Source: a bacterium (lineage in GTDB: Bacteria > UBA10199 > 2-02-FULL-44-16 > JAAZCA01). Taken from it: a DNA stretch of 64,000 nt. The notes beneath the pieces were generated by a model that was not told where the DNA came from, did not search any database, and saw only the letters and a program-made list of their open reading frames with translations. Position numbers and translations under genes: made by a program. How positions within the stretch are numbered: position 1 is the stretch's first letter; each line of letters begins with the position of its first letter. Shown in pieces: positions 7,561 to 25,257 of the stretch. The stretch spans positions 384,001 to 448,000 of the forward strand of contig CAXXGI010000001.1 of NCBI GenBank assembly GCA_963674695.2. The letters run 5' to 3'.

Positions 7561-10314
7561 TTATTCCTCTTCTTCTTCAATGCGTGCGGATTTTACGGTG
7601 AAGGGGGCGCAGGCGATGTTGATCTCGTGGATCGTCGCATCAAACATATTGCTCACCACCCCCACGAGCGCCTTACCCTCGTCACACGTGCGCACATCGT
7701 GTCCGGATCCGTCGCGGGTCACCCCTTTCATATTCGTCCACGTCATATAGGCGGGAAGCGTTCCGAGATCAATCGTATCGGCATCCCGAAAGAACGCGAT
7801 CGGCGTGCAGCGCAGGGCCAGACCGCTCAGTCCGTGATAGCTATGACTGGTTCGCGTCTTCGAAATCGTATAGTGATCGGCGGCCACGCCCGTGGCCACA
7901 TGTCCACGCGGACAGGCCATGCGCGTTCCGGCCTCGATGTCATACAGGTTCTGCACATCCTCCGGCCCCGTCATATAGCCGTAGGTCACGTTATTGAATC
8001 CGGGCAAAAAGAATTCCCCCTCACAACGCTGCCCATTACAGCCGGTCCTCGCCGAAAAAATATCGCCGATATCCCGATAGAGCGGCATGAGGGAGGTGAC
8101 CGCATCTCGCGCCGGTTTTGCATTTCCATTCCACCATCGTTCCACCGCAATGCCTGTCATGAGCGGAAGGCCCTCATCGCGCCAGGCATCCCAATCGCCC
8201 GTTGCATCCATTTCAGCGGCACCGTCATTGCCCATCGCCCAGCCCTCGATCGCATGATCGTCCTCGACCGCCAACTCGACCGTCCAGGAGGGATATTTCT
8301 CCTCGTTTTGAATGGGGCGGCACTTGAGCCCCAGGTTGTGGATCATCGTGTCGCCCTCATCCACATATCCCCAGATACCGCTGGCCACGCCCTCCTCGCA
8401 GGAACTGCGATAGCGGGTCGAGAGCCAGTGCGCACAGAACTGCCCCTGGCATTCGGCGCGCTCCTCGATCGGATCGGCCGGTTTGGCGCGATGATCGTCG
8501 TCGCGTCCGCGATCGGCAAGCGTCCCGACGGGCTTGAGAAAGAGGGAGAAGGTCTCGCCGGTGAAGGGGGCCTCCTGCTGCGCGTCATTGATGCGCACGC
8601 GACCGTGGCCGTCCACAGCGATGCACTCGATGCCGAGCGCACCGACGTTGCGTCCGCCGCTGGAATACCCCTTCGTCGCGAAGAGGCGCGAGACGGCATA
8701 GCCCAAGGGGCACAGGCGCGTCTGCTCGCTGCGGCGACTGTCATCGGCATCATCCTGGCCGACAAAAGCGAGCGTATCGTTGCTTCCCACGAGCCCGCCC
8801 TTGCCGTCCTTCGCTTCAAAGCGCGGGGTCCACGACTTACAGACCGGCGCGATGCCGTCGATATCGCCGCCATTGATGAATTTGAATCCGATCAGGAGTT
8901 GTCCATCCGGGCAGGAGGCATCGAAGCGCTTCTTTCCCTCGTTGCTGCCACCGACCGTACTCGGCGCGGTCTCCTCTTCGCCGAGCGCGAGGACGTTGTC
9001 GATCTTCCACTGAGCGAGGCTTTCCTGCAACGCCTTGCACCCCTCATCCCATCCGACCACATCCTGCGCGTGCGCACCCTTGGGATCGAAACGCTGATAC
9101 TGCTTGCCGATCGCATCCGCCTGCATCACCAGGCTCGCGCGCTTGGCCGTGCATTCGCCGATGGCCGTCGTCTCGTCGTTCGGCTTGCCATAAAACCCCT
9201 TCCACGCCTCAAGGATATCGTCCTGTGCGCGAAGCGCCTCGTTGCACTGATCATCCGCCTTCTGCTCGCACCCATCGGTGCGATGATTGGTCTCATCCTT
9301 GACGGTCGTCTCCAGCGCTTCGAGCGCGGCCTTCTCGATTGTGAGATCAGCCAGCCGCGTCTCGAGCCCGGCGCAGGCCGAGCCGTCGTCGGAGAGCGCT
9401 GGCGCCGCTTCCACCTCGGCGATCGTCACCGACATGCCAGAAAACCGCGGAAGTTCCGTGGGCAATGCAGTGAGGCTCGAACGCTGTGCCTCGCATGCGA
9501 TCACCGTGCGTTCGGCCGAAATGGGATGTTCCTGCTTGAGCAGACGTCTCCCGCCCATGATCCAGACAAAGGCATACTCCTTGGCATCGTCCCAACGTTG
9601 CGGCTGATGGCACGCGCTCACCTCTTGCGAGGAAACCGCCTTCTGAAACGGCTCGAAGTAGATATCGTCCGCGATGCGATCCCAATCCTGCATCACCCGT
9701 CCGAAACGCATGCCCACCTGCTCAAAACGCGCATCCGTCTCGCGCACCGTCTCGACGATGCGCGCACCGATCTCGGCGAGCGCGTGGCGATCCCAGCAGT
9801 CGTCGCCCTTGCTCGCGCCCATGACGCACTCGGGGAGCATCGCATCGCCCTGTTCACAGCGCCCAAGTTTTGCGGCCAGTTCGGCGATCTCCTCTTTTGA
9901 AGCCTCATGACTGCGAATCGTTCCGGAGGCCAGGATCTCGCTGCAGGAACGCGCAGCGCAGGCCACATCGCGCTTGGCCACCAGGCCGTCGGCGGCGAAG
10001 AGCTGTTCGCGCAAATCGGCGACATCGCCTTCGAGTTCCTCGACATCGCCGCGCATGCGTTCGCAGCGGCGGACCCCGGCTTCGTCGTCGTCATCGTCAT
10101 CGATGACATCATCGTCGTCATCGTCACCGAGATCGACCGTTCCCGGCTCACCGCAGAGCGGACCGACGCAGAGATCGGGGGCATCGATGACGATGGTGTC
10201 GTCAGAGATATCCAGGCCGAGATCACCCTCGCCGCCGACACCGTTTCCGGCGCTACAGGCTGAGAGCAGGGTCAAAGAGAGGACGAAGAGAAAGAGAATG
10301 ACGAGTTGCCGCAT
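7561..10314 (-). CDS. Large Cys-rich lipoprotein, paralog 1 (acidic linker, coiled coil, C-terminal beta-prism/VMO-I-like repeats)
   Basis: GGAGG RBS and lipobox LSAC; poly-Asp tract; repeated CPxGxxxxG...C motifs (SCPDGQLLIG, LCPLGYAVS, ACPRGHVATG, TCDEGKALVG). Confidence 0.85.
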   Translation of the reverse strand: MRQLVILFLFVLSLTLLSACSAGNGVGGEGDLGLDISDDTIVIDAPDLCVGPLCGEPGTVDLGDDDDDDVIDDDDDDEAGVRRCERMRGDVEELEGDVADLREQLFAADGLVAKRDVACAARSCSEILASGTIRSHEASKEEIAELAAKLGRCEQGDAMLPECVMGASKGDDCWDRHALAEIGARIVETVRETDARFEQVGMRFGRVMQDWDRIADDIYFEPFQKAVSSQEVSACHQPQRWDDAKEYAFVWIMGGRRLLKQEHPISAERTVIACEAQRSSLTALPTELPRFSGMSVTIAEVEAAPALSDDGSACAGLETRLADLTIEKAALEALETTVKDETNHRTDGCEQKADDQCNEALRAQDDILEAWKGFYGKPNDETTAIGECTAKRASLVMQADAIGKQYQRFDPKGAHAQDVVGWDEGCKALQESLAQWKIDNVLALGEEETAPSTVGGSNEGKKRFDASCPDGQLLIGFKFINGGDIDGIAPVCKSWTPRFEAKDGKGGLVGSNDTLAFVGQDDADDSRRSEQTRLCPLGYAVSRLFATKGYSSGGRNVGALGIECIAVDGHGRVRINDAQQEAPFTGETFSLFLKPVGTLADRGRDDDHRAKPADPIEERAECQGQFCAHWLSTRYRSSCEEGVASGIWGYVDEGDTMIHNLGLKCRPIQNEEKYPSWTVELAVEDDHAIEGWAMGNDGAAEMDATGDWDAWRDEGLPLMTGIAVERWWNGNAKPARDAVTSLMPLYRDIGDIFSARTGCNGQRCEGEFFLPGFNNVTYGYMTGPEDVQNLYDIEAGTRMACPRGHVATGVAADHYTISKTRTSHSYHGLSGLALRCTPIAFFRDADTIDLGTLPAYMTWTNMKGVTRDGSGHDVRTCDEGKALVGVVSNMFDATIHEINIACAPFTVKSARIEEEEE

Positions 10315-10334
10315 AGGAATTTCCTCCATTCCTA

Positions 10335-10396
10335 TTATCGGCTGTAGGGGGGTGCAGAAGTGCCTTGAAACGGGGAAAGCGTGGACGAAAGAGAAC
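10335..10396 (-). promoter_or_regulatory. sigma28-like promoter with upstream GTGGAC-N4-GAGAAC box
   Basis: Minus strand CACTT-N15-GCCGATAA (10362-10335); box at 10381-10396. Confidence 0.65.
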
Positions 10397-10453
10397 AAAA
10401 TTCCCCAATGATTTCAAGGATACTATTTAGAATGGACGAGGAGAACCGCGTCC

Positions 10454-13252
10454 TCACTCATCGTCATCCGCATGAACCGTGATGTCCAGATTGGCGCAGT
10501 GCATCTGGACCTGATAGACGAAATCGTTGCACCAGTTGCCCGTGAGGCCGTAGGCCACCTGGTCTTCATCACAAGACCCATTGTATTGTGTCTCGGAACC
10601 GAGCGACGTCGCCGCGCCATATTCCACACCATGCATGCTCGTCCAGACCTGCAGGCTGTCCTTTTTGGCGAGGACGATTCCCTTCTTTCGATTCCACACC
10701 AGGGGACTGCACTTGAGCGCCGCACCGCGCATGCCGCTGAAACGAGGCTCTTCCTGACGGTTGTTGCCGCTGACGGCGATGCCCGTCACCAAGTGCCCTG
10801 GGGGACAGGCGATCTCTGCACCCTTTGTGGAGTAATCGATCGCGTTGTCGATCGCATCGACGCCGATCAGGAGACTGTCATCCCAAAGATCATTTTCATC
10901 GAGCATATCGCGGCCAACGAGATCAGCCAACACACGCGGCTCCTCTTCAAAGAGGTTTGTCTTACGATAGAGCGGTGCAACTTGCTTCAACGCCCGACGT
11001 CGATAGTTTCCCCATGTTGCTGTCACATGCCACCGAGCACTGATGCCGATCAAACCCCGAAGCAGCGGATAGGACTCATCATCATCCATCAGGTTATCGA
11101 TGGCACTGATCCATGTACTTCCATCATCACCCTTCGCCGTTCCCAGCCATGGCGTCGCGCTCACCGTTCCACTCGCCGCCACGGTGATCTCGCGCACCGG
11201 CCAGACATCGTTGCTCTCATTGACAAATGAACGACAACGCAACGCGAGCCACCGCACCATGCTCTCCTCGCGTTCAACGACATCGATCCCGGCAGCAACG
11301 CCGTTCTCACAACGGCTGGCAAAGCGCGTATCGACCCAGTGCGCACAGAAAACCCCGTTACAATCGGAACGCTCATGGATAGCACCGCTTTGATATGAAT
11401 AATCATCCACACGATTGCTACCCTCTTTTTTATTCAACCAGACATGATGACCGTTGGCACCTTCATCGTTGTCCATTGCCCCTGCCGGACCGATGAAGAC
11501 GACCAGCGGCGAGGTCGTGCTCGCGCCATTTGCCTTCACGCGAATGCGACCGTAGCCATCGACGGCCACGCACTCGAGGGCGAGCGAACCGACGTTGCGG
11601 CCATGCGCATACTTTCCGCTGGTCATATAGAGCGAGCGAACGACATAGTCTTTCGGACAATAGAGCGATTCTTCATGCTGCCCCTCGGTCTCACCGTAAT
11701 AGGTACCACGCTCCCGGAAGGCGGAGAGCCCATCGCCATAGAGAAGCCCTTCTCCTTCACCCTCTCGCCACTGACGATAGACCGGCTGCAGGCCATCGAT
11801 ATCGCCAGTACCGTCTTCGCCCACCTGCAGACGAAATCCAATGAGGAGAGCATCATCCGCTTCGGGCTCGTCGATCTTCTTCACCAATCCCGATGGATAG
11901 GGGAGGCTCTCGGTCGTAACGGGGAGCGGCTTCACCTCTCCCAGCCGGACGAGGGTTCTGTCTTTCCACGTCTTGAGCGTACCCGCGAGGCGCTCGCACC
12001 CCGCCTCCCAACCGCTTACCCCTGTAGCGAGTTCACCCTTGGGATCGAAATTGTGATACAGCTCTCCCATCGCCGCGGCCTTCAGCCTGAGATCCTTGCG
12101 CTTGACTATGCACTCGTCGCTGGCCTCTCCATAATACCCATCCCACGCTTCATAGATATCTTCCTGCGCACGAAACGCCACGTCACACTGATCCTCAGCC
12201 TTCCGCTCACACCCATCGGTGTGATCATTGGTCTCATCCTTGACGGTCGTTTCGAGCGTTTCGAGCGCGGCCTTCTCGATCTCGAGATTGGCCAGCCTCG
12301 TCTCGAGGCCCGCGCAGGCCGAGCCATCGTCTTCGAGCGTCGGGGCCAGCTCCACCTCGGCAGTCGTCACCGCCATGCCGGAAAAACGCGGGAGCTCCGT
12401 GGGCAGGGGCGGAAGGGAATCGAATTCTGTCTTTTTCACCACCGCCATGCGTTCGGGAGGAATCGGTTGATCCTTGAAGGCATGCCCTGCCATGACCCAC
12501 GTAAAGAGATCCTGCTTGGCCATGCTCCAATCCTTTTTCTGATAGCAGGCGCTGATCTTTTCTTTCGAAACGTCGCTTTCGAATGTAGTAAAATAGGGGT
12601 CGGCGGAAATCACATTCCACTTTTCTTGGCTCGACCCAAACGCATCTCCGATTTTTTCGAACCGACCATCCGTCTCATTTCTCGTCTCGATGAAGCGCTC
12701 GCCGATCTCTACAAGCGAGTGGTGATCCCAACAGTCATCATTCTTCCCTGCACCCATCGGACAGGCGGCGATGCTCTCATCGCCCTGCTCACAGAGCGCG
12801 AATGTTGTCTTCAACTCCGCAATATCCTCCTTCGATGCTTCATAGCTGCGGAGCGTCCCGGAGGCGAGGATCTCGCTGCAGGAGCGCGCGGCACACTCCG
12901 CATCGCGCTTGGCCACGAGGCCATCGGCGGCGAAGAGCTGTTCACGCAAATCCGCGATATCGCCTTCGATATCTTCGACATCGCCGCGCATGCGTTCGCA
13001 GCGGCGCAGTTCTTCTTCGGGATCGTCAGGATTGTCCGGATCGTCAGGATTGTCCGGATCGTCAGGATTATCGGGGTCGTCAGGGTCGCCGCAGAGCGGG
13101 CCGACGCAGATATCGGGAGGGTCGATGATGATGTTGTCGTCGGGGCCGTCGAGACCGAGGTCGCCCTTGCCGCCGACACCGTTTCCGGCGCTACAGGCTG
13201 AGAGCAGGGTCAAAGAGAGGACGAAGAGAAAGAGAATGACGAGTTGCCGCAT
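10454..13252 (-). CDS. Large Cys-rich lipoprotein, paralog 2
   Basis: Signal peptide identical to paralog 1 (MRQLVILFLFVLSLTLLSAC); shares RRCERMRGDVE, FCAHW..R..S.CE.GVA and ACPPGHLVTG. Confidence 0.85.
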   Translation of the reverse strand: MRQLVILFLFVLSLTLLSACSAGNGVGGKGDLGLDGPDDNIIIDPPDICVGPLCGDPDDPDNPDDPDNPDDPDNPDDPEEELRRCERMRGDVEDIEGDIADLREQLFAADGLVAKRDAECAARSCSEILASGTLRSYEASKEDIAELKTTFALCEQGDESIAACPMGAGKNDDCWDHHSLVEIGERFIETRNETDGRFEKIGDAFGSSQEKWNVISADPYFTTFESDVSKEKISACYQKKDWSMAKQDLFTWVMAGHAFKDQPIPPERMAVVKKTEFDSLPPLPTELPRFSGMAVTTAEVELAPTLEDDGSACAGLETRLANLEIEKAALETLETTVKDETNDHTDGCERKAEDQCDVAFRAQEDIYEAWDGYYGEASDECIVKRKDLRLKAAAMGELYHNFDPKGELATGVSGWEAGCERLAGTLKTWKDRTLVRLGEVKPLPVTTESLPYPSGLVKKIDEPEADDALLIGFRLQVGEDGTGDIDGLQPVYRQWREGEGEGLLYGDGLSAFRERGTYYGETEGQHEESLYCPKDYVVRSLYMTSGKYAHGRNVGSLALECVAVDGYGRIRVKANGASTTSPLVVFIGPAGAMDNDEGANGHHVWLNKKEGSNRVDDYSYQSGAIHERSDCNGVFCAHWVDTRFASRCENGVAAGIDVVEREESMVRWLALRCRSFVNESNDVWPVREITVAASGTVSATPWLGTAKGDDGSTWISAIDNLMDDDESYPLLRGLIGISARWHVTATWGNYRRRALKQVAPLYRKTNLFEEEPRVLADLVGRDMLDENDLWDDSLLIGVDAIDNAIDYSTKGAEIACPPGHLVTGIAVSGNNRQEEPRFSGMRGAALKCSPLVWNRKKGIVLAKKDSLQVWTSMHGVEYGAATSLGSETQYNGSCDEDQVAYGLTGNWCNDFVYQVQMHCANLDITVHADDDE
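13020..13090. repeat. In-frame 18-bp tandem repeat encoding (DDPDNP)n
   Basis: ggatcgtcaggattgtcc units inside paralog 2; protein reads DPDDPDNPDDPDNPDDPDNPDDP. Confidence 0.9.
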
Positions 13253-13272
13253 AGGAAGAACCTCCATTCCTA

Positions 13273-13335
13273 TTATCGGCTGCAACGGGGGCAGGAGGTG
13301 TGCGCGGGCACCAAAAACCGTTCACTTATGAGTAC
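13273..13335 (-). promoter_or_regulatory. sigma28-like promoter with upstream GTTCAC-N4-GAGTAC box
   Basis: Minus strand CACCT-N15-GCCGATAA (13300-13273); box at 13320-13335. Confidence 0.6.
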
Positions 13336-13497
13336 GCAGAAAGAAAACAATATCGGGAGGTTTCATTACTCCTGTCGCTTGCGGGGTTCAGAATATCCGT
13401 CACCATCCACATGACCCGGCGGGTCAGCTGACCTTGACGCTCCAGTCCTCGAATTGCTTCCGATAGGTTTCATACCCGGATTTTCCCTGGATGGGCG

Positions 13498-16254
13498 CTA
13501 TTCTTCCGGATCGGCCCAGGAGGTGGCCTTGATCGTGAGCGGAGCGCAGACGGCAGAGACCCTTCGCACAAACGCATCGGTGCGATTACCCACGATACCC
13601 ACGACCACCTCATCATCGTTTTCGCAGATTTCCTCCCACTGAGCATCACCGTCCTCGCTCGTTCCCTTCATGCTCGTCCAGGTCATATACTTCTTCGCGT
13701 CTCCCTGTTTAATCGCATCGGAATCCTTGAAATACGCGATCGGTGTACACCGCAGCGCAACCCCTCGAGTCTGTGTCAGCATATATCTTCCCCTATAACG
13801 TTTCCCCGCAATGCCGGTGACGACATGACCGGCCGGGCAGGAGATTTTGGTCCCCCAATCGTTCAGCCGATCCACATCCCCATTGTCATAGTTCGTCATG
13901 CTGTTGACAAAACTGGGGATGATCATTTCACCAAAGCAGAGCGGATCGTCCGAGCCCCCGCAGATCACGCCATCAACGAACAGATCCCGAGGTTGCCGAA
14001 AAACGGGCGTCAAAAAAGAGACCGCATATTCCCCAGATGAATTCGATCCACTCACATCCTTTTCCATACGAGACACACGGATACCGGTCACGACGGGACT
14101 TCCCTCCCCTTCCCAGGCATCCCAATCGGGCTCGACCGTCTTCTTGATCTTCTCTTGTTTTTCAAAAAACACTTTTTCCACATTGTACCGCTCCGCACTC
14201 TCATCGACCTTGATCTCGACGGACCATGACTTGTATTTTCCCTCGTTCTCGAACGGACGGCAGTTGAGCCAGAGTTCATGGATGCGCGTATCCTTCTCAT
14301 TCGTGTAGCCATGGAGACCGGTCGCAACGCCGTCTTCGCACGCGCTCTGAAATCGCGTGAGCGGCCAGTGGGCACAGAACTGCCCATAACAATCCTCGCG
14401 ATCCTTGATCAACTTACTCGCCCGATCATCAGGATGGGTATCATCGCCGACTTTTCCGACCGGGGTCAGGTGGAGCGTGAGGAATTTCCCCGTATCATAG
14501 TCATCTTCATCCGCGGCATGGAGGCGCACGCGACCATGGCCATCGATGGCCACGCACTGGGCCGCGAGCGAGCCGACGTTGCGACCAGAACCGGAGTGTC
14601 CCTTGGTCATGAAGATACGGCTGATCGCGTATCCGGCCGGGCAACGCATCTGCGAAGAGGACTGCCCGTCTTTTTTCTTCTGACGACCGAACGATCCCCC
14701 CGATGTCCGCTCTCCCACCAGACCGCCGATACCGTCTTCGCTCTCCATCGCGGGAATCCAGTCCTGATAAATAGGCGTCACACCGGTGAGATCGCCCCCG
14801 CTCCAGAGGTCGAAGCCGACGAGGACTCGGTTGCTGACGGCATTTGTCACAAAATGCGTCCACTCCACCCGATCCCCTGCCTGTGGGTGCCAATTCGGAT
14901 CGCCGGTGGAGGTGCGATTCTCCTCGCCCAGCCGAAGGACGTTGTCCTTCTTCCAGACCTCAAACTCCTTCTTCATCAGCGCACAACTCGTCAACCCATC
15001 CTGCATCGCTGAAGCGATATCGCCCGTCGACGCGAACAACAGATACTTCTCGCCAACCTGTGCGGCCTTCTCCACGAGCGCGCTGCGCTTGACCATGCAC
15101 CCACCGATGGCAGTCGTCTCGTCCTTGCGCTTCCCATAAAACGTCTTCCACGCCTCATAGATATCGTCCTGCGCGCGCAACGCCTCGTTGCACTGATCCT
15201 CCGCCTTCCGCTTGCAGCCATTTTCACGACCGTTCGTTTCATCTTTGACCGCATCCTGCAGATTTTTCAGTGCCGTCTTCTCCGCCTCGAGATTCGCCAG
15301 CCGCGTCTCGAGCCCTTCACAGGCCGAGCCATCGTCGAAGAGTGCTCGCGCCGCTGCAACCAAAGCGGGTGCGACCGCAATGCCACCAAACTGAGGAAGA
15401 ACCTCTGGAGGCACGGGGAGAGAGGAACTCGCCACGGATGTCTGTTCCGCTGCAATCGGATGGGCATCGACCCGGCGCAGAAGCGACCGGCCTCCGACGA
15501 GCTCTGTTCCGATACCACCCCGTCTTTCCGTGTCGAGGCAGGCATCGATATGCGCGGAATCGCTCGCATTGCGAAAGGCTTCGAGATAGCCGTCCGCCCG
15601 GATGTCATCCTCTTGGTCGGCCAAGAGGGTGTAGACCTTCGCCTGGGCCTGAACGCGCGGTTCGGTCTTTTTTGCGACCCGGCCGATCTCGGTGGCGATC
15701 CCTGAGAGCGAATAGTGATCCCAGCAATCGTCCTTGCCGTTGGCACCCATGGTGCATTTGGAAATGCTCGCATCGCCCTTTTCACAGCGCCCAAACTCCG
15801 CGGCCAGATCGGCGATTTTCTCTTTCGAGGCCTCATGGCTCCGGATCGTCCCGGAGGCCACAATCGCTTCACAGGAGCGCGCGCTACAAGTTGCATCGCG
15901 CTGGGCCACGAGACCGTCGGCCGCAAAGAGGCGTTCGCGCAGATCCGCGACATCGCCTTCGATCTCCTCGACATCGTCGCGCATCGCCTCGCAGCGGCGG
16001 ACCTCAACTTCGGCCTCTTCCGCTTCATCCTCAACATCATTGTCGACATCAGCATCGTCAGCATCACCATCATCATCGTTCTCGTCATCGCTGCAAAGCG
16101 GGCCGACGCAGAGATCGGGGCCATCGACGATGATACTATCGTCGGGACCATCGAGGACGAGGTCCCCCTCGCCATCGACGCCATTTCCGGCGCTGCAGGC
16201 GGAGAAAGCGATAATCATGAACGTGATGAGGATGAGGGAGGAGATATTCCGCAT
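13498..16254 (-). CDS. Large Cys-rich lipoprotein, paralog 3
   Basis: Lipobox FSAC followed by SAGNGV; same block architecture as paralogs 1 and 2 (CPAGYAISR, FCAHWPLTRFQSACEDGVATG, SCPAGHVVTG). Confidence 0.85.
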   Translation of the reverse strand: MRNISSLILITFMIIAFSACSAGNGVDGEGDLVLDGPDDSIIVDGPDLCVGPLCSDDENDDDGDADDADVDNDVEDEAEEAEVEVRRCEAMRDDVEEIEGDVADLRERLFAADGLVAQRDATCSARSCEAIVASGTIRSHEASKEKIADLAAEFGRCEKGDASISKCTMGANGKDDCWDHYSLSGIATEIGRVAKKTEPRVQAQAKVYTLLADQEDDIRADGYLEAFRNASDSAHIDACLDTERRGGIGTELVGGRSLLRRVDAHPIAAEQTSVASSSLPVPPEVLPQFGGIAVAPALVAAARALFDDGSACEGLETRLANLEAEKTALKNLQDAVKDETNGRENGCKRKAEDQCNEALRAQDDIYEAWKTFYGKRKDETTAIGGCMVKRSALVEKAAQVGEKYLLFASTGDIASAMQDGLTSCALMKKEFEVWKKDNVLRLGEENRTSTGDPNWHPQAGDRVEWTHFVTNAVSNRVLVGFDLWSGGDLTGVTPIYQDWIPAMESEDGIGGLVGERTSGGSFGRQKKKDGQSSSQMRCPAGYAISRIFMTKGHSGSGRNVGSLAAQCVAIDGHGRVRLHAADEDDYDTGKFLTLHLTPVGKVGDDTHPDDRASKLIKDREDCYGQFCAHWPLTRFQSACEDGVATGLHGYTNEKDTRIHELWLNCRPFENEGKYKSWSVEIKVDESAERYNVEKVFFEKQEKIKKTVEPDWDAWEGEGSPVVTGIRVSRMEKDVSGSNSSGEYAVSFLTPVFRQPRDLFVDGVICGGSDDPLCFGEMIIPSFVNSMTNYDNGDVDRLNDWGTKISCPAGHVVTGIAGKRYRGRYMLTQTRGVALRCTPIAYFKDSDAIKQGDAKKYMTWTSMKGTSEDGDAQWEEICENDDEVVVGIVGNRTDAFVRRVSAVCAPLTIKATSWADPEE

Positions 16255-16261
16255 GTTAGGA

Positions 16262-16323
16262 TTATCGGCAGGCCGGGGGGGCAAAGGTGCCGCGAAACGG
16301 AGATACCGTGGACAGAAGAGAAC
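16262..16323 (-). promoter_or_regulatory. sigma28-like promoter (probably leaderless) with GTGGAC-N4-GAGAAC box
   Basis: CACCT-N15-GCCGATAA, only 7 nt before the ATG, no SD; box at 16308-16323. Confidence 0.65.
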
Positions 16324-18399: not shown

Positions 18400-18443
18400 C
18401 GGCCGTGACACGTGACACGTAACACGTGATTCGTACAAAAACG

Positions 18444-18479
18444 TAAAAAGACCGGCGCTCACAAGCGCCGGTCTTTTTA
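18444..18479 (+). terminator. Rho-independent terminator, likely bidirectional
   Basis: taaaaagaccggcgct-caca-agcgccggtcttttta, between convergent genes. Confidence 0.85.
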
Positions 18480-18500
18480 CATGGACGAAAAGCACTGCCG

Positions 18501-18690
18501 TTGTCATTCCCGCCCTTCGACTACGCTCAGGACAGGCTCCAGCGGGAATCTCGCTGTATCGTAAAAATCGAGATTCCCGCCTTCGCGGGAATGACAAACA
18601 GAGGCGGGAATGACAAACAGAGGCGGAGATGACAAACAGAGGCGGGAATGACAAACAGAGGCGGAGATGACAAACGGAGAAATGACACTG
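18501..18690. repeat. dRS3-like ATTCCC-N8-GGGAAT REP pair followed by 19-bp tandem repeats
   Basis: gtcattcccgc...gcgggaatctcg / cgagattcccgccttcgcgggaatgacaa, then about 4 copies of gaggcgg(ga/ag)atgacaaaca. Confidence 0.85.
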
Positions 18691-18703
18691 TTTGGAATCC
18701 GTT

Positions 18704-19396
18704 TCACTCCGACCAGAGCAGGCGTTCGCGGATGCGGCGCTCGGCGCGGGCAAAACGCGCGCGATATTTTGGGTGGGTGATCATCTTGGGGTTGGGCAGG
18801 AGCGAGGCGAGCTTCGCCGCCTGAACGATGTTCAGACCTGAGGCGCTCGTGCCGACGTGATAGCGCGCGCCGAGCTCGGCGCCGTAGATGCGCGGCGCAA
18901 ACTCGGCGACGTTGAGATACATTTCAAGAATGCGCTCCTTGGAGAGCATCGTCTCCATCGCGAGTGCAAGCCAGACCTCGTTCCACTTGCGCATCCACGT
19001 CCGTTTCGGGCCGAGGAATATATTCTTGGCCGTCTGCATCGTGATGGACGATGCGCCCCGCACGACACGCCCCGCACGAATATTGGCGAGAATCGAGTTG
19101 GCGATGAGAACGCCATCGAGGCCATGATGCGCGAAGAAGCGCGGATCCTCCGCCTCGATCACCGCACGGCGCAAGATGGGCGCGATGCGATCAAGGGCAA
19201 CCCACTGCTGTACGACCGGACGCGAACAGCTCCGCATGAAGGGCGTGGTCGTCGGGTTCTGCTCACGCAACTGCGCCACCGCAGACACGCCCCGTCCGAT
19301 GAGGAGCATGCCCGCGATAAAGGCACAGACGATACCGATGGAAATCAATCGCTTCAAAAGGGCAGATCCTCCTGGGAAAGAGCATGCGCCGTTCAC
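18704..19396 (-). CDS. mtgA: Monofunctional peptidoglycan transglycosylase
   Basis: GT51 motifs EDPRFFAHHG, GASSITMQTAKN, RKWNE, KERILEMYLN; start uncertain. Confidence 0.9.
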   Translation of the reverse strand: MNGACSFPGGSALLKRLISIGIVCAFIAGMLLIGRGVSAVAQLREQNPTTTPFMRSCSRPVVQQWVALDRIAPILRRAVIEAEDPRFFAHHGLDGVLIANSILANIRAGRVVRGASSITMQTAKNIFLGPKRTWMRKWNEVWLALAMETMLSKERILEMYLNVAEFAPRIYGAELGARYHVGTSASGLNIVQAAKLASLLPNPKMITHPKYRARFARAERRIRERLLWSE

Positions 19397-20478
19397 CGCG
19401 GAAATTCCTGCGAAGCCACTTCAATCGTATGTCCCGTCACACCCGGCGCCCACATCTCTGCCTTGAGGGCATCGACGCTGGAGAAGCTCGAATAGGTCAG
19501 CACCGATCCCTCGCCAGTGACCAGCAACGGTTTGCAGGGATAGCCGTATTTCCCTGAAACCCCCTTTGAACACTTGTTGGTAAACTGCCCGAGTCCGGTG
19601 GGATTTCCATCCACCAGTACGCCAGCGGTGCTATAGCTGATTCCATCGTGTTCTTGAAGAAAGTCGATCGCCTGGGCGATAAGACCGTTATCGTTGCCAT
19701 CCCAGGACAGACTTCCCATCATCCGTTTGAAGTTGTCATAGAACCCCTCCATGTGGCCAGCAAAGTCTTTTTGCTGACCATCTTTATCCTCATGATACAT
19801 CCCGTGCAGCCAGGTCGGAACATAAACGATCGCCTCTTGTCCTTCCGGCACGAACCACGAAACACGGTAGACGCCGCGATCATTCCGCCCATTCTCGCGA
19901 TCATGGTCCGTCTGATCGACAAACTCGACATTGAGGGCAAACACATCCGCATCGTCATCGTCGCCCGTCTGCGTTCCGGTGCCATTGCCATGTCCGCCAC
20001 CGCCGGTCACACCATCGTCGTCATCATCATCATCGTCATCGCCAACGACCGCTTCGCCATCGATGACGAGTTCCACGGTATTCGATTCCAGAATCCCATC
20101 CTCCGTCTCGCGCAGGACCTTCACGGAGACACTCCCCGCCTCGATCGCGGGCACGGTGAACGGGACCTGCCCGTCGATGGCATCGGGCTCGGCCGAGCTC
20201 ATCAGGCCCGAGAGAAAAGCGTTGCTGCTCACCGTAGCCACGATGGTCTGGTCTCCCACCATCACCTCGTCGGTCGTCGCATCCAGCCCCTCGCCGTAGA
20301 GGATGACGGTCTCGCCCGGGGCCGCACTGGAAACGCTGATCCCGTCCACACGGAGGCCATTGCCACCACCGCCGGGACCATCGCCACCGCCGCCAAAACC
20401 GGAATCATCGCCGCCACCGGAACAGCCGGCCGACATGAGTACCCCCACCAGGATCAGCACTATTGATTTCCGATGCAT
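19393..20478 (-). CDS. Lipoprotein with IPT/TIG-like domain and Gly/Asp-rich linkers
   Basis: TAAGGAGG RBS, lipobox SAGC, Ig-like motif SSAAPGETVILYGEGL...VPAIEAGSVSVKV, poly-Asp tract. Confidence 0.75.
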   Translation of the reverse strand: MHRKSIVLILVGVLMSAGCSGGGDDSGFGGGGDGPGGGGNGLRVDGISVSSAAPGETVILYGEGLDATTDEVMVGDQTIVATVSSNAFLSGLMSSAEPDAIDGQVPFTVPAIEAGSVSVKVLRETEDGILESNTVELVIDGEAVVGDDDDDDDDDGVTGGGGHGNGTGTQTGDDDDADVFALNVEFVDQTDHDRENGRNDRGVYRVSWFVPEGQEAIVYVPTWLHGMYHEDKDGQQKDFAGHMEGFYDNFKRMMGSLSWDGNDNGLIAQAIDFLQEHDGISYSTAGVLVDGNPTGLGQFTNKCSKGVSGKYGYPCKPLLVTGEGSVLTYSSFSSVDALKAEMWAPGVTGHTIEVASQEFPR

Positions 20479-20511
20479 ACAACCTCCTTATAATACATTC
20501 CCCAGTTAGGT

Positions 20512-20648
20512 GTATCGGCTGCCGACCCCCCGCATATCCTCTCGAGACCGATTTATCGTGCACGGGCGTACACACGGCGATTGCGGTGCCACTCAGAATT
20601 GTCGACTTCCCCTATACGAACGCACAGGATGGGTGTATACTAGTCCAC
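20512..20648. promoter_or_regulatory. Divergent control region with two 16-bp palindromic boxes and a sigma28-like -10
   Basis: GTGCAC-gggc-GTACAC (20558-20573), GTGTAT-acta-GTCCAC (20633-20648), and minus-strand GCCGATAC (20519-20512). Confidence 0.6.
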
Positions 20649-20688
20649 ACTGAATATTGGCACCGGACAGTTCTAGGTGGAGGCAGCG

Positions 20689-21537
20689 ATGGTCAGCATC
20701 TATCAATATCTGGACTACCGAAAATTCCTGCTCGACTATTACGAGGAGAAGAAACGCACGACCAAGACGATGTCCTACCGCAACTTCGCGCGCGCAGCGG
20801 GGCTTGCCGGGTGGAACTATTTAAAGCTCGTCGTCGACGGCAAGCGCAACCTCTCGGCCAGCTCTATCGCCAAGTTCGCCAAGGCGCTCAAACTCAAAAA
20901 ACGCGAGACTGACTTTTTCAGCATCCTGGTCAGCATGAACCAGAGCAGCGATCCGGAGGAGAAGAGCCGCTATTACGAAAAGCTGATGACCTTCCGGCGG
21001 TTCAACGAAATTCACCGGATGGAGAACGACATCTATCAGCTGCTCAGCCGCTGGTATATCGCTGCGGTGCACGAGCTGGTGGCGCTGCCGGATTTCGACA
21101 CGGATCCGCGCTGGATCGCGCAGCAGCTGCGCCCCAACATCACGATCGCCGAAGCGAAGAAGGCACTCGAGATTCTGCAGCACCTGGGGCTGATCAAGAT
21201 CGATCGTGAAAAGAATATGACCGTGCAGACCAAGGGACACTTCGCGACCCCCGATCAGGTCAGCGGCATCGCCATCTTCAACTTTCAGAAGGAGATGCTG
21301 GCACTGGCGCACAACGCCCTGCGCTATCGCTCCTCGCGCATCCGCGACATCTCGGGACTGACCATCGCGCTCTCGCCGGAGGGGTTCGACACCGCCAAGG
21401 ACATGATCCGCGAGTTCCGTCGCGGCCTGCACGCCAAGCTGGCCACGGGGGGACAACCCACCGCCGTCTATCAGCTCAACTTTCAGATCTTTCCGCTCAG
21501 CGAGGTCAAGGCGACCCGCGCCGCTCCTTCCGAATAA
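20689..21537 (+). CDS. TIGR02147 family protein (N-terminal HTH plus DUF4423)
   Basis: Motifs YLDYRKFLLDYYEEKK, SYRNFARAAG, YLKLVVDGKRNLS, WYIAAVHELV, VYQLNFQIFPL. Confidence 0.9.
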   Translation: MVSIYQYLDYRKFLLDYYEEKKRTTKTMSYRNFARAAGLAGWNYLKLVVDGKRNLSASSIAKFAKALKLKKRETDFFSILVSMNQSSDPEEKSRYYEKLMTFRRFNEIHRMENDIYQLLSRWYIAAVHELVALPDFDTDPRWIAQQLRPNITIAEAKKALEILQHLGLIKIDREKNMTVQTKGHFATPDQVSGIAIFNFQKEMLALAHNALRYRSSRIRDISGLTIALSPEGFDTAKDMIREFRRGLHAKLATGGQPTAVYQLNFQIFPLSEVKATRAAPSE

Positions 21538-21675
21538 ATTCTGCATATTCAGGTCGGATTGGTGAGAAAGTGGGTACAGGTGTACACACCTGCGCCTGCA
21601 AAAAAGCACTATTTTACCATTGCCTTCAAGGCGTTCGACCGATCCTGACCCGTTTTTTCGCCTCGGCTCCCCACG

Positions 21676-21703
21676 CAACCGAACCCCACGCCAGAACCGA
21701 TAA
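21676..21703 (+). promoter_or_regulatory. sigma28-like promoter
   Basis: CAACC-N15-ACCGATAA upstream of ATG 21736; a palindromic box GGGTAC-aggt-GTACAC lies at 21572-21587. Confidence 0.55.
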
Positions 21704-21735
21704 CCCAGATAGAAACGACGCATCGAGGAGGAGTC

Positions 21736-22434
21736 ATGAATATCCGCATCGCATTGACCATCATCATCTGCCTCTGCTTCATGAGCGCGTGCAGCGTGAG
21801 CCGCAGCATCGAGGTGGGAAATCCCCTCGAGACCGAAGCGCCTGAACCCAACTCCTCCTATACGAACCATGCGTTCGGCGTGGCGATGACGGTGCGATCG
21901 GATTTCCAGATCGCCGAGGAGGAAGCGAGCTTTGTCCGTTTCGAGGATGATGCCACCTCGTTCGTACAGTGCACGTTCGCCTGGGGAAACTGTCCGGCAT
22001 CCGTCGCGGCCGCTATCGATGAGACCGATTACATCCACCAGTACCTGAGCGCCCTGTCGATGTATGATGACCGAGCCGTCTGCATTACAGTCGAGGGCGT
22101 CATCAGACCGGGGATCAGCGCTGATGACGACAGGCCAATCGTTGCGATCGATACCGACCACACGCCGGGAGATCCGAACACCGATACAACCGAGCCGGGT
22201 CCACAGGCCGGCGATGGAGCGAAGGAGACGCCCTCCTGCACCGACGCGACCTGTGCCGAAGCACCGGCGACGGTGCCAGGCGATGGGGTCAGCAGCCGCA
22301 CGCCTCCGACACCGGTCGATGCGGATGAAGCAAGCGCCGAAGAGGAGGAAGATGCCCCCGCATGCACCGACGAGACCTGTGCCGAGGCCCCGAGCACCGG
22401 TCTGGGTGGCAGCATCGGCGGTTTGATGCCTTAA
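21736..22434 (+). CDS. Lipoprotein with SIEVGNP motif and acidic/Pro tail carrying two CTDxTCAEAP repeats
   Basis: GAGGAG RBS, lipobox MSAC, SRSIEVGNP. Confidence 0.8.
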   Translation: MNIRIALTIIICLCFMSACSVSRSIEVGNPLETEAPEPNSSYTNHAFGVAMTVRSDFQIAEEEASFVRFEDDATSFVQCTFAWGNCPASVAAAIDETDYIHQYLSALSMYDDRAVCITVEGVIRPGISADDDRPIVAIDTDHTPGDPNTDTTEPGPQAGDGAKETPSCTDATCAEAPATVPGDGVSSRTPPTPVDADEASAEEEEDAPACTDETCAEAPSTGLGGSIGGLMP

Positions 22435-22506
22435 GGTCCATTTCCCCCCTTTTTCCATCGAATGATCGTCAAAATATTGACGGTCATTCTTTTTTTGGCA
22501 AAAAAG

Positions 22507-22534
22507 CAACTCCATCCCCCCTGGCTGCCGATAA
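22507..22534 (+). promoter_or_regulatory. sigma28-like promoter
   Basis: CAACT-N15-GCCGATAA upstream of the second SIEVGNP lipoprotein. Confidence 0.55.
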
Positions 22535-22633
22535 CTCTGACAGATCTGAATGGCACTGAACGCCGATAGGAAAGTGGTTGATATGGCACATCTCTTGCTT
22601 CATTTAAGACGTGGTACCCAGGAGAGGACGCTC

Positions 22634-23458
22634 ATGAAACGGATCCTTATGGCGCTAGCCCTGTTCGCCCTGCTTGCAGGAGGGGTTGGCTGCACCGGCA
22701 TGCAGAAGAGCATCGAGGTGGGCAATCCGCAGGAAGAAGAGACGCCGATGCCCGTCTTGGAAGTTGAGAACGAATATTACGGCGTCACCGTGAAAGTGCG
22801 CGAAGACTTCCAGTTCAGCGCACAGAGCGATAGCGCCTGGGTTCTCGAAAAGTTCCCCTCCACCGTCAAACTCGATTTCAGCTGGGATGACGGCAACTGC
22901 CCACCGTTGGAATCGACCCATGAAGAGGACGGCTTTGTCATCGTCGAAAAGCGAGAGTCCGTCCTGTCGACGAAGGAAGACCGCGGTGTCTGCATTGAAA
23001 CCTATGGCCGGATCATGAACAACGAGATCATCCCGGGGGGCAGTGACCCAGTCGATACCGACCCGAACGATATGGTGATAGCAAATGACGGCGTCGACCC
23101 GAACAAGCTCAACGATCCGAATAAAGATCCGCTGGGGAATCTCTCCGGAGGAGGGGGCGGATCCGGCGGCGGCGAAAAGGAAATCTACGACGGCGAAGAG
23201 GACCCCGAGATCGTCGTGCGCAGCAATACGGGTGGCGGCGGAGGTTCCCCTGTCGCCCCGCACGACTACGATATGCATACCAACACCCCCCCTGGCGAAA
23301 TCCAGACCCAGCCCGGCGAAGGCTACATACACGATGGCGACGCGATGGAACGCGCCGACGACAGTCCCTACCAACGTCAGCAGGGTGATTACCGTTGGAG
23401 AACTCCCTCTCGGGGCACGATACAGATTCCCGGCGACGACGACGATGATGACGATTGA
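22634..23458 (+). CDS. Lipoprotein with SIEVGNP motif, paralog of 21736-22434
   Basis: Lipobox GVGC, QKSIEVGNP; shares N..(F/Y)GV...VR.DFQ, F.W..(G)NCP and DR.VCI with the upstream paralog. Confidence 0.8.
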   Translation: MKRILMALALFALLAGGVGCTGMQKSIEVGNPQEEETPMPVLEVENEYYGVTVKVREDFQFSAQSDSAWVLEKFPSTVKLDFSWDDGNCPPLESTHEEDGFVIVEKRESVLSTKEDRGVCIETYGRIMNNEIIPGGSDPVDTDPNDMVIANDGVDPNKLNDPNKDPLGNLSGGGGGSGGGEKEIYDGEEDPEIVVRSNTGGGGGSPVAPHDYDMHTNTPPGEIQTQPGEGYIHDGDAMERADDSPYQRQQGDYRWRTPSRGTIQIPGDDDDDDD

Positions 23459-23470
23459 GATCGACGAAAA

Positions 23471-23508
23471 CAAAAAAGCCCGGCACCATTTGGCGCCGGG
23501 CTTTTTTG
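23471..23508. terminator. Bidirectional Rho-independent terminator
   Basis: caaaaaagcccggcacc-attt-ggcgccgggcttttttg, between convergent genes. Confidence 0.85.
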
Positions 23509-23525
23509 TATCCATCACCTATTGA

Positions 23526-23978
23526 TCAGGAGACCTTGCACAGACAGTTCGCGCAGAGGTTCCCCGAGGCACAGGCATGCACCTCTTCGCCAATCCTGCC
23601 CCGAACATTCTCATCGACACTGCGCGGGGTGACCTCCCACAACCCCGCCTCGATCAACCATTTGCGGATCGTCTCGCGGGAAAGATCGAGCCCCTTGCTG
23701 TCCACGACATCCCGAACGAACATGCTGATCGCACGCCCTCGATAGCATTCGCGATAGAGGCCAACGACCTCATCCTTGATGATGGTGGGCTTGGCCCGAT
23801 TCGACCGCCGCCCCTTGAGCCCGTGCACGAGGCCATCGGCACCACGCGCCTTGAAGCGAATGACGCGACGCCCGATCGTGCGCGTACTGCATCCCAGAAT
23901 GACCGCCGCCTCCTTATAGGAGAGCACCCCATTCAACACTCGCTCCAACACCTCTGTCTGATACGCGATCGTCATCAT
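23526..23978 (-). CDS. Transposase-like (IS481/ISNCY N-terminal) HTH protein with C-terminal Cys cluster, no DDE domain; paralog A
   Basis: EAAVILGCSTRTIGRRVIRFKARGADGLVHGLKGRRSNR and LSRETIRKWLIEAGLW, ending HACASGNLCANCLCKVS; GGGAGG RBS. Confidence 0.8.
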   Translation of the reverse strand: MMTIAYQTEVLERVLNGVLSYKEAAVILGCSTRTIGRRVIRFKARGADGLVHGLKGRRSNRAKPTIIKDEVVGLYRECYRGRAISMFVRDVVDSKGLDLSRETIRKWLIEAGLWEVTPRSVDENVRGRIGEEVHACASGNLCANCLCKVS

Positions 23979-24040
23979 GCCTCCCGGTCTGTTGCAGTCC
24001 TCGCTGGTTTTTGTTTTGCTGCTGCCGTGTTCTGTCTGAA

Positions 24041-24102
24041 TTATCGGCAGCTCCGCCCCAAATGGTGCGCGACAAAACAATAAAGCGTGGACTTCTGTAC
24101 AC
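24041..24102 (-). promoter_or_regulatory. sigma28-like promoter with GTGGAC-N4-GTACAC box
   Basis: CACCA-N14-GCCGATAA on the minus strand; box at 24087-24102. Confidence 0.65.
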
Positions 24103-24265
24103 ATTCAATTCAATGATTATTTAAGAATTTCATGGAGATATGGTAATTATCGCCAAGGCAAATACATGCACATTTAACACCAAAGAACACCCTTGTACGC
24201 AGGCGTCACCCCCATCGACATCGAGGGAAAATGCTGTATCTCATCGGAATGATGGGGATAAAGAA

Positions 24266-24294
24266 AACCCCGACCAGGATCACTGGTCGGGGTT
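24266..24294 (-). terminator. Hairpin terminator after HTH paralog B
   Basis: aaccccgaccag-gatca-ctggtcggggtt, followed by a T-rich tract on the minus strand. Confidence 0.7.
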
Positions 24295-24333
24295 CGGATA
24301 GATATCGATCGATCAGAAGGAAATACACCGTTT

Positions 24334-24810
24334 CTACGACACCTTGTTCAGACACTCCCTGCAGTCATGCGCCTCGGCACAGGCACACGGGGCAACAACG
24401 GGTTCTCCCTGCGGCGTCCCTTCGATCGCCGTCGGTACTGAGGACTGACAGGGGCGACCACGGCATCCCGCCTCCCACAGGCCCGCTTCGATGAGCCACT
24501 TGCGGATCGTCTCGCGGGAGAGGTCGATCCCCTTGCGTTCGACCTGACGGATGAAATCGCTGAGCGACTTCACTTCAGCCTGTTCCTGGAAGATCAGGAC
24601 CACCTGCTCCTTCAGATTCTCCGGCTTGGCGCGATTGCTGCGTCGACCCGTCAGACGATGCATCAGGCCGTCGGCGCCCAGGAGTTTATACCGGGCCAGT
24701 TTACGCTGCACCGTACGGATGCTGCAGGACATGAGCCCGGAAGCCTCCTGATGCGTGATCTGTCCTGCGATGATGCTGTCGAGCACTGCCTTCTGATATC
24801 GAATACTCAT
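24334..24810 (-). CDS. Transposase-like HTH protein with C-terminal Cys cluster; paralog B
   Basis: EASGLMSCSIRTVQRKLARYKLLGADGLMHRLTGRRSNRAKP and LSRETIRKWLIEAGLW, ending CACAEAHDCRECLNKVS. Confidence 0.8.
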   Translation of the reverse strand: MSIRYQKAVLDSIIAGQITHQEASGLMSCSIRTVQRKLARYKLLGADGLMHRLTGRRSNRAKPENLKEQVVLIFQEQAEVKSLSDFIRQVERKGIDLSRETIRKWLIEAGLWEAGCRGRPCQSSVPTAIEGTPQGEPVVAPCACAEAHDCRECLNKVS

Positions 24811-24859
24811 GTGATGTCCCCAATCTGTTGTGACGCCCCCTGTGTCAGTTCTGTCTGGA

Positions 24860-25051
24860 TTATCGGTTGGCGACAGATGAAAGGTGTGCGGCAAGATACG
24901 AAAGCGTGCACAGCGAAACACGTGGCTGTGTACAGATGTACACAGCCGGACCCTATCTATGTAATTGAATTTATTGAATTCTTCTTGTCCGCGACAGGCG
25001 AAAAAGGCGAAAAAAGGAGGGGTTTGTGTACAGCTGTGCACAGTCGTGTAC
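24860..25051 (-). promoter_or_regulatory. sigma28-like promoter with a cluster of GTGNAC-N4-GTNCAC boxes
   Basis: CACCT-N14-ACCGATAA; boxes at 24906-24921, 24928-24943 (GTGTAC-agat-GTACAC) and 25026-25041. Confidence 0.65.
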
Positions 25052-25226: not shown

Positions 25227-25257
25227 GATCGGCATAATCGTCTTTTGCGGACAACCC

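Follow-up and report, generated by a model that had tools for sequence, protein, structure and literature searches.

In a 64,000-nucleotide (nt) stretch of DNA (the window; positions 384001-448000 of contig C1 of G000, a genome of 3.03 Mb in three contigs with 59% G+C), six minus-strand promoters carry a palindromic box, GTNNNC-N4-GTNNAC, that ends 38–39 nt upstream of a -10 element of the form RCCGATAM. A protein of the TIGR02147 family very probably binds these boxes, and we think it likely that they are the operators of the window's own TIGR02147 protein (20689-21537), acting as an activator. The mechanism is an ordinary one, a palindrome-binding activator that regulates itself; what is new is its assignment to an uncharacterised family and its setting on an unusual promoter class. 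Positions without a contig name refer to the window, and the relatives examined are 93 genomes of the phylum, all within one class, of which 22 form the order.

All six pairs of box and -10 element listed in the initial annotation were found at the coordinates claimed, with gaps of 38 nt in five cases and 39 nt in one (13280/13320), and the additional boxes reported at 20633, 21572, 24928 and 25026 are present as well (Table 1). The composite also occurs outside the window: further sites lie at C2:331147(-), C3:276640(+) and C3:1035424(+), with a tenth at C2:357232(-, gap 37). Its frequency is far above chance. The window holds 19 copies of RCCGATAM, whereas 100 shuffles gave 5.73 ± 2.21 (largest 13). 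The spacing enrichment that the annotation had predicted was recovered genome-wide: GT.[CA]AC stands at offset -45 or -44 in 9 (3 + 6) of 478 RCCGATAM sites, compared with a mean of 0.60 (standard deviation 0.87, maximum 4) at 125 other offsets. The pattern GTNNNCNNNNGTNNACN{37,40}CCGATAA gives seven matches in the genome and none for the reversed control, and misses two of the nine sites (20519, which reads CCGATAC, and 24906, which reads GTGTTT). A weight matrix built from 14 sites finds 17 matches of at least 18 bits against two in the reversed genome, a test that is partly circular in that the training sites are counted among the matches. When the nine sites are aligned, the invariant columns are GT in the distal half-site, GT..ACG.T in the proximal half-site and CCGATA, with only a T-rich tract and a weak -35 between box and -10. 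Five of the nine genome loci with strict hexamer pairs lie within 4.5 kb of the window's TIGR02147 gene. Scanning all promoter calls of the genome (254 or 233) for palindromes revealed a modest enrichment, with five perfect ones at a gap of 38–39 nt and about one at each other gap. The genes downstream belong to unrelated families. The promoters of lipoproteins A and C are visibly paralogous across their whole upstream region, so that the six sites are not six independent events.

The promoter itself is not peculiar to these genes and represents a general class: the pair GCAACTT-N13/14-RCCGATAA is found throughout the genome (65 matches in its strict form versus 1 for the reversed pattern; 233 in a looser form versus 52 in the reversed genome). 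GCAAC(T)T is strongly enriched 12–15 nt upstream of RCCGATAA, and the enriched -35 word is (A)CGCAACTT. Because the rRNA operon has a TTGACA-type promoter, the GCAACTT/RCCGATAA class should belong to an alternative sigma factor. In the six promoters of the window the -10 reads GCCGATAA (four), ACCGATAA (one) or GCCGATAC (one). We take GCCGATAA, a word that also occurs in sigma28 papers, to be the -10 of sigma28 (FliA/WhiG), whose canonical -35 is TAAA-type. The class is most likely read by a divergent, non-flagellar sigma of the FliA/WhiG type encoded at C3:8530-9399, whose best match is TIGR02479 (FliA/WhiG; 132.4 bits, cut-off 189.6) and whose operon has two perfect class promoters upstream. 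No flagellin domain was found in the genome, which is rated 100% complete, and its FlhA-like gene belongs with HrcV/SctV, which are non-flagellar (793.7 bits, cut-off 692, versus 683 bits for FlhA, below that model's cut-off). The term variant sigma28 promoter, used in the initial annotation, is thus a fair name for a class whose sigma is a predicted one: a canonical -10 and a single FliA/WhiG-like sigma as best candidate speak for it, and the sigma below the family cut-off, the different -35 and the missing flagellin speak against it. The class resembles FliA/WhiG regulons, which include that of the non-flagellar WhiG of Streptomyces (PMC12871210), in its GCCGATAA -10 and in the use of such a sigma outside flagellar biogenesis; it differs from them in having GCAACTT and not a TAAA-type -35, in its sub-threshold sigma and in its large size (the 65 strict matches).

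Two observations lie beside this subject. The genes flanking that of the sigma (one after it, of 165 aa, and one before it) match no family. The type III export gate lies at C1:140946-142997; a tie between the export cluster and the promoter class was considered and dropped, there being no strong class promoter at that place.

What connects the boxes to TIGR02147 is the behaviour of the family as a whole. The window protein matches TIGR02147.1 over model positions 1–271 of 272 (231.6 bits, cut-off 50) and PF14394 (DUF4423) with 126.4 bits (cut-off 30). The family is present in 77 of the 93 genomes, with up to 18 copies each, and comprises 15,061 clusters at 50% identity (E ≤ 1e-10); from the initial annotation, the model name Fsuc_second and the entry Bd3700, we take its carriers to include cultured Bdellovibrio and Fibrobacter. 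The check around homologues suggested with the initial annotation bore it out. Within 200 nt upstream of 102 distinct TIGR02147 genes from G000 and its relatives, a perfect G[TA]NNNN-N4-6 palindrome occurs in 40, and one with at least five of six positions in 63. Perfect palindromes occur in 22 of 73 upstream regions versus 2.14 ± 1.57 (largest 11) in 200 shuffles, a comparison weakened by a shuffle that mixes the sequences incompletely. Their distance to a CGATA-type -10 peaks at 38–40 nt with 17 cases (39–41 in the raw count, which began one base inside the 8-mer), and no other offset has more than three. Relative to the start codon, the 40 perfect palindromes fall at -68 to -70 (15) and at -78 to -101 (21).

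The palindromes also appear to follow the protein. The recognition-helix 7-mer is identical in 39 pairs, of which 19 agree in both half-site and spacer (mean 3.7, maximum 17 in 2000 shuffles); the relatives are kin and co-inherit helix and palindrome in part, so shuffle tests of this kind overstate independence. All seven proteins with (T)SNF(L/M)MLV, including NFLMLV, go with GTGTTC-N4-GAACAC; NFFKLVM proteins go with GTATAC-N4-GTATAC, NFLKLV and NQLQLI proteins with GTATTC-N4/5/6-GAATAC, GFLKLV proteins with GTTTTC-N4-GAAAAC and NF.KFVM proteins with GTTTAC-N4-GTAAAC. Within an orthogroup the predicted half-site is preserved, and from one orthogroup to another it changes. The proposal that TIGR02147 is the binder is in this way supported by orthogroup-specific palindromes upstream of family genes, by the shared spacing peak and by half-sites that track the recognition helix. 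It is supported as well by GTRYAC-N4-GTRYAC boxes directly upstream of family genes in seven other genomes. Outside G000, 7 of 49 strict loci of this form lie 19–87 nt upstream of a TIGR02147 gene (G037, G046, G071, G061, G050, G072, G028); the 49 loci had been found without regard to gene position, and the seven cases emerged on comparing two lists and were then confirmed in the sequence. Among the TIGR02147 promoters of relatives, several resemble sigma70 promoters, the near edge of the palindrome being about 18 nt upstream of the -35. That the geometry is the same on such promoters would suit an activator indifferent to the sigma factor.

Most TIGR02147 genes are followed by a lipoprotein gene, often with overlapping stop and start, whose product has, a few residues behind the lipobox cysteine, a motif resembling G(T/S)E(V/A)GNP. 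By gene order the two form a conserved pair, seen at C2:470819, C2:636690, C1:555431 and C2:102237, in the window (21736-22434) and at locus L115 of G022.

Six TIGR02147 paralogues are encoded in G000. C1:208802 has GTGTTC..GAACAC (C1:209823) in its divergent region, with a GAACAC half-site 38 nt from its own -10. C1:555431 is the second gene of an operon whose promoter carries GTATTC-N6-GAATAC (C1:557131), again at 38 nt. To C2:636690 we assign, by orthology to G008:C4, the GAAGAC-N4-GTCTTC sites at C1:452990 and C3:365229. No palindrome could be assigned to C2:102237 or C2:470819 from their upstream regions. The window gene has boxes on both sides, as has its only close orthologue, G008:C16 (68% identity), both being flanked by GTGTAC/GTSSAC boxes within a syntenic cluster of IPT lipoprotein, TIGR02147, EVGNP lipoprotein, HTH (helix-turn-helix) and GGDEF genes. 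Three of the six paralogues thus have a cognate-type palindrome 38 nt from a promoter within their own locus (C1:209823, C1:557131 and the window). One G022 paralogue, preceded by a GTGTAC box, has the same unusual tryptophan in its helix as the window protein (GWNY versus SWNF), which we take as a hint only. A metagenome search for closer orthologues of the window protein returned only two relatives, at 32% identity, whose upstream regions contain a repeated TTTAAAACAT word and no GT palindrome.

Beyond the source genome, the composite recurs in part of the order: G000 (7), G011 (4), G008 (3), G006, G004 and G018 (1 each), with none in the other 16 order genomes and none for the reversed control in any of the 22. 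In G006 and G011, of one genus, the box takes the form GTATAC-N4-GTAYAC, with 11 and 16 loci against 1 in the control; in G018, with four strict boxes, it is GTACAC-N4-GTGTAC, and in G008 GTGGAC-N4-GTGTAC. G022, of another family and 50% G+C, has GTGTAC-type boxes 38, 39, 48, 48 and 49 nt from the -10 and a second type, GTTGAC-N4-GTCAAC, at 38 nt. Across genomes of 44–65% G+C the half-sites change and the spacing is kept. Most spacings are 38/39 nt, and the variants of 48/49 nt (G022, G020) and 28 nt (G008) depart from this by one helical turn; with steps of about 10 nt, the box stays on one face of the helix. In G006, G011 and G018 the genes downstream encode lipoproteins, thrombospondin-repeat proteins or unfamiliar proteins, and none of the open reading frames (ORFs) within 1.5 kb of 21 loci in these genomes resembles the query proteins P0001-P0003.

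A separate feature of G006 and G011 is that many contigs (C82, C49, C202, C240, C250, C286 and C323 of G011; C55 of G006) begin or end 66–69 nt from a GTATAC box and share the flanking word GGTGCGCTAGAAACTTGAATTCACC, which points to a multi-copy sequence directly upstream of box promoters in both genomes.

We propose the following model. TIGR02147 proteins, with a putative N-terminal Cro/C1-type HTH and a C-terminal DUF4423, would bind as dimers to palindromes of 16–18 base pairs (bp), G(T/A)NNNC-N4-6-GNNN(T/A)C. The promoter-proximal edge of the site would lie 38–39 nt upstream of the -10 and about 16–18 nt upstream of the -35, its centre near -61, with variants one helical turn nearer or further. 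From there the dimer would stimulate RNA polymerase as class I activators do, presumably through the alpha C-terminal domain. The initial annotation had placed an activator about 55–65 nt upstream of the start site, with which a box centre at about -60.5 to -62.5 agrees if transcription begins 6–8 nt after the -10. We infer activation rather than repression because the box never overlaps the -35 or the -10 and because most box promoters have a weakened -35: in seven of the nine, 3–6 of the 7 positions agree with GCAACTT, the mildest change being a C in place of the fourth-position A. All seven positions are matched in 29 of 89 RCCGATAA promoter calls. In this genome most promoters of this kind would be GCAACTT-N13/14-RCCGATAA, read by the sigma from C3:8530-9399. 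Each paralogue would recognise a half-site of its own, in most cases found ahead of the gene that encodes it (autoregulation), and the next gene would as a rule encode a partner lipoprotein. The GTGTAC-type paralogue would control the largest set in the genome, some ten promoters, comprising three large paralogous lipoproteins, an IPT/TIG lipoprotein operon, a leucine-rich-repeat lipoprotein, other secreted proteins and two transposase-derived HTH proteins. For the family as a whole, the likeliest picture is one of HTH activators that sit near -61 and regulate their own genes. A wider generalization we hold to be evenly balanced between true and false: that the family consists of self-activating Cro/C1-type regulators multiplying by duplication, each copy acquiring its own 6-N4-6 palindrome through recognition-helix changes and usually being wired to a partner lipoprotein gene and to surface or secreted proteins that it alone controls, and that in this phylum the network runs on a non-flagellar sigma28-type polymerase, activator-dependent sigma28 promoters being the rule here and a rare exception in E. 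coli.

Several points weigh against this reading, besides the incomplete shuffle and the kinship already mentioned. The window's TIGR02147 gene does not have the standard autoregulatory layout: the box at 20633 ends 40 nt before its ATG, and neither a sigma28-like nor a sigma70-like promoter was found beside it. A sigma54 promoter for this gene was rejected (TGGCAC at 20658, without a -12 element), as was the idea that sigma54 recognises the box promoters around their -35, where the GG-GC spacing is wrong; matches to the sigma54 pattern with up to two mismatches are at chance (56 versus 56.5). The HTH assignment rests on weak matches (Pfam HTH_26, E 0.18; C.AhdI, E 0.15; C.BclI, E 0.054 with a 32-sequence profile, residues 23–72), those to solved structures all being above E 0.05. 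The paralogues of G006 and G011 that have a GTAYAC or GTGTAC half-site are only 30–35% identical to the window protein, so that this half-site is not tied to one orthogroup. In G006, G011 and G018 the boxes and the TIGR02147 genes lie on different contigs, and adjacency is therefore not general. Many TIGR02147-bearing genomes have strict GTRYAC counts no higher than the reversed control, as would be expected if their paralogues read other half-sites. Finally, gene starts were assigned by a heuristic.

Could another protein read the boxes? The unusual layout upstream of the window gene would be explained if another G000 paralogue, C2:102237 or C2:470819, bound the GTGTAC-type box. Three of the five other paralogues have been given different half-sites, from their own locus or by orthology, which leaves these two, and C2:102237 is 53% identical to the window protein and has no palindrome assigned. 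We nevertheless consider this unlikely: four boxes lie within 150 nt of the window gene, on both sides; the densest box cluster of the genome lies within 4.5 kb of it; its G008 orthologue has the same arrangement; and there is no GTGTAC-type box near C2:470819 and only a weak one (12.4 bits) near C2:102237. Strong operators usually lie near the gene of their own regulator, and this can be counted in favour of the two small HTH proteins of the window, HTH1 and HTH2, which would then regulate themselves and the lipoproteins, with the TIGR02147 gene as merely another target. Both of their genes have the composite promoter, the region upstream of HTH2 holds the only perfect palindrome and the triple of phased hexamers, and both G008 orthologues have a box at 38–39 nt. 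This idea is nonetheless improbable, since among 41 genomes searched close homologues occur only in G000 (three) and G008 (two) and cannot explain the boxes elsewhere; for this reason the pair was dropped as universal binder. None was found in G006, G011 or G018, which have 11, 16 and 4 strict boxes, nor was there any among the ORFs within 1.5 kb of those boxes; more distant homologues belong to unrelated phyla, the third G000 copy has no box, and the geometry of the box is that of TIGR02147 gene promoters.

Two further explanations dispense with the HTH proteins of the locus altogether. A 16-bp palindrome centred near -61 occupies what we take to be the classical class I position of CRP, and a dimer of the CRP/FNR type, or a regulator of another family, might bind the palindromes, TIGR02147 genes being its frequent targets. 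CRP does activate two sigma28 promoters in Escherichia coli (PMC2859248). One foreign regulator could not produce many different half-sites, each of them matched to the recognition helix encoded next to it, and a second, equally expanded family would be needed, which makes this very improbable. Least credible of all is that nothing binds, the likeness of the upstream regions being due to promoter duplication or to an UP-like structural element. The upstream regions of lipoproteins A and C are alike over about 90 nt, and the T-rich stretch that follows the box looks like those in other class promoters; against this, the nine sequences cannot be aligned outside box and promoter elements, the genes downstream come from unrelated families, and the composite keeps its spacing, with changed half-sites, in genomes of 44–65% G+C. 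Operators of a TIGR02147 activator thus remain our preferred explanation.

Besides the FliA/WhiG regulons, three known systems come close to the proposed one. Restriction-modification C proteins are small Cro/C1-type HTH dimers that bind palindromes upstream of their own genes and activate them, and C.AhdI (1y7y) and C.BclI (2b5a) are the only solved structures matched by the N-terminal 50 residues (E 0.05–0.15). TIGR02147 proteins differ from them in their length of about 280 aa, in DUF4423, which C proteins do not have, and in their lipoprotein gene targets, and no restriction or methylase genes lie near the window locus. Class I activation by CRP/FNR-family proteins takes place at -61.5, -71.5 and so on. 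In both cases the two half-sites of a palindrome, spaced by about 10 bp, occupy a single helix face beyond the -35 on its upstream side (here 28, 38/39 and 48/49 nt to the -10), although the protein family is another and the same geometry is found here on sigma28-like and, in relatives, sigma70-like promoters. To our knowledge, the only activator-dependent sigma28-type promoters described are two CRP-dependent ones in E. coli. These are aer and trg, with CRP at -49.5 according to Hollands et al. 2010 (PMC2859248). They have in common with the present composite a dimeric activator on a palindrome at a fixed position upstream of a GCCGATAA-type -10. Here, by comparison, the predicted centre is near -61 with variants of ±10 nt, a putative XRE-type HTH protein takes the place of CRP, one paralogue would serve about ten promoters with several paralogues in parallel, and the sigma would not be flagellar. 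In the passages that a full-text literature search by the family names brought up, the family was named only once, where a table lists Bd3700 as 'DUF4423 domain-containing'; Bd3700 is reported to be upregulated when the bacterium grows inside prey (PMC12546842). With a class of operators predicted, a constant promoter geometry and half-sites that correspond to the recognition helix, a family of no published function becomes testable. If the model is right, regulons could be predicted in every genome that carries TIGR02147, and the genome would offer a natural case of many activator-dependent sigma28-type promoters. It would also point to surface genes switched together by an uncultured, non-flagellated bacterium with a type III export gate.

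Table 1. Genes, -10 elements and boxes around the TIGR02147 gene (positions in the window).
Feature	Position	Strand	Remarks
Large lipoprotein A	7561..10314	-	ATG 8 nt after GGAGG taken as start; lipobox LLSAC
-10 GCCGATAA, lipoprotein A promoter	10335..10342	-	
Box GTTCTCTTTCGTCCAC	10381..10396	-	38 nt upstream of lipoprotein A -10
Large lipoprotein B	10454..13252	-	no Pfam family
-10 GCCGATAA, lipoprotein B promoter	13273..13280	-	
Box GTACTCATAAGTGAAC	13320..13335	-	39 nt upstream of lipoprotein B -10
Large lipoprotein C	13498..16254	-	paralogue of A and B
-10 GCCGATAA, lipoprotein C promoter	16262..16269	-	
Box GTTCTCTTCTGTCCAC	16308..16323	-	38 nt upstream of lipoprotein C -10
Monofunctional peptidoglycan transglycosylase	18704-19396	-	TIGR02070, 187 bits; within IPT lipoprotein run
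IPT/TIG-like lipoprotein	19393..20478	-	TIG E 0.0014, below cut-off
-10 GCCGATAC, IPT lipoprotein promoter	20512..20519	-	no recognisable -35 (3/7 match)
Box GTGTACGCCCGTGCAC	20558..20573	-	38 nt upstream of IPT lipoprotein -10
Box GTGTATACTAGTCCAC	20633..20648	+	ends 40 nt before TIGR02147 start codon
TIGR02147/DUF4423 protein, 282 aa	20689..21537	+	candidate binder; putative N-terminal Cro/C1-type HTH at about residues 23-72
Box GGGTACAGGTGTACAC	21572..21587	+	108 nt upstream of -10 at 21696
-10 ACCGATAA, partner lipoprotein gene promoter	21696..21703	+	
Partner lipoprotein with SIEVGNP motif	21736..22434	+	lipoprotein type placed after most TIGR02147 genes
Lipoprotein gene	22550-23458	+	
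HTH1, 150 aa	23526..23978	-	putative regulon member; resembles N-terminal DNA-binding part of ISNCY-type transposases
-10 GCCGATAA, HTH1 promoter	24041..24048	-	
Box GTGTACAGAAGTCCAC	24087..24102	-	38 nt upstream of HTH1 -10
HTH2, 158 aa	24334..24810	-	HTH1 paralogue, 45% identity
-10 ACCGATAA, HTH2 promoter	24860..24867	-	
Box GTGTTTCGCTGTGCAC	24906..24921	-	38 nt upstream of HTH2 -10
Perfect palindrome GTGTACATCTGTACAC	24928..24943		60 nt upstream of HTH2 -10; identical copy at C1:1900
Three hexamers GTACAC/GTGCAC/GTACAC	25026..25051		10-nt phase
HAMP-GAF-GGDEF diguanylate cyclase gene	25258-26862		

As for the genes themselves, lipoprotein A is a paralogue of B and C, with 46–49% identity to B over the aligned part, and Pfam and NCBIfam scans assigned it to no family. 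Only 7 nt separate the -10 from the ATG of lipoprotein C (16252-16269), whose mRNA may be leaderless or nearly so if the promoter is correctly assigned. The IPT/TIG-like lipoprotein is the first gene of a four-gene minus-strand run, and its orthologue adjoins the TIGR02147 orthologue in G008. The true starts of HTH1 and HTH2 are at 23978 and 24810, and both proteins match the ISNCY-type transposase model at positions 1–111 of 368 only (79–80 bits, cut-off 250), short of a full-length catalytic match. The GGDEF gene, whose product is 71% identical to that of the syntenic G008 gene, has its own promoter of the same class at 26947-26954 (ACCGATAA, -35 GCAACAA).

Other repeated or palindromic words were noted in the same region. 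Palindromic repeat units TGTCATTCCCGCGAAGGCGGGAATCTCGAT, in tandem and inverted copies 3' of genes, occupy 25120-25245 and recur at C1:208689, C1:402574, C1:557390 and C2:638445; they look like REP-type intergenic elements, and a related unit is found in G015 (locus L068). The promoter of the lipoprotein gene at 22550-23458 carries another palindrome, CGTCAAAATATTGACG (22467-22482), 44 nt upstream of its -10 (22527-22534), and GCGTCAGAAATCTGACGC, of the same type, lies 37/38 nt upstream of another class promoter (C3:745108); the two may represent a further type of operator. In the same lipoprotein gene, a perfect sigma54-type word, TGGCACATCTCTTGC (22584-22598), sits between the sigma28-like -10 and the probable true start (MKRILMALALF...), close to the latter. 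Perfect words of this type were also found ahead of two TIGR02147 genes, the paralogue C2:102237 and the G008 orthologue of the window gene.

Elsewhere in the genome, GTNYAC-class hexamers recur at spacers of 1, 8 and 15 nt (262, 207 and 157 pairs versus 5–14 for other spacers), which points to 7-nt periodic repeats concentrated in a few regions (C1:562000, C1:122000-126000 and others). About 60 nt after the box promoter at C2:331147, a G+C-rich hairpin is followed by a T run (C2:331050-331147, minus strand), and only beyond these comes an ATG that has a ribosome-binding site; this promoter may drive a small RNA or an attenuated leader.

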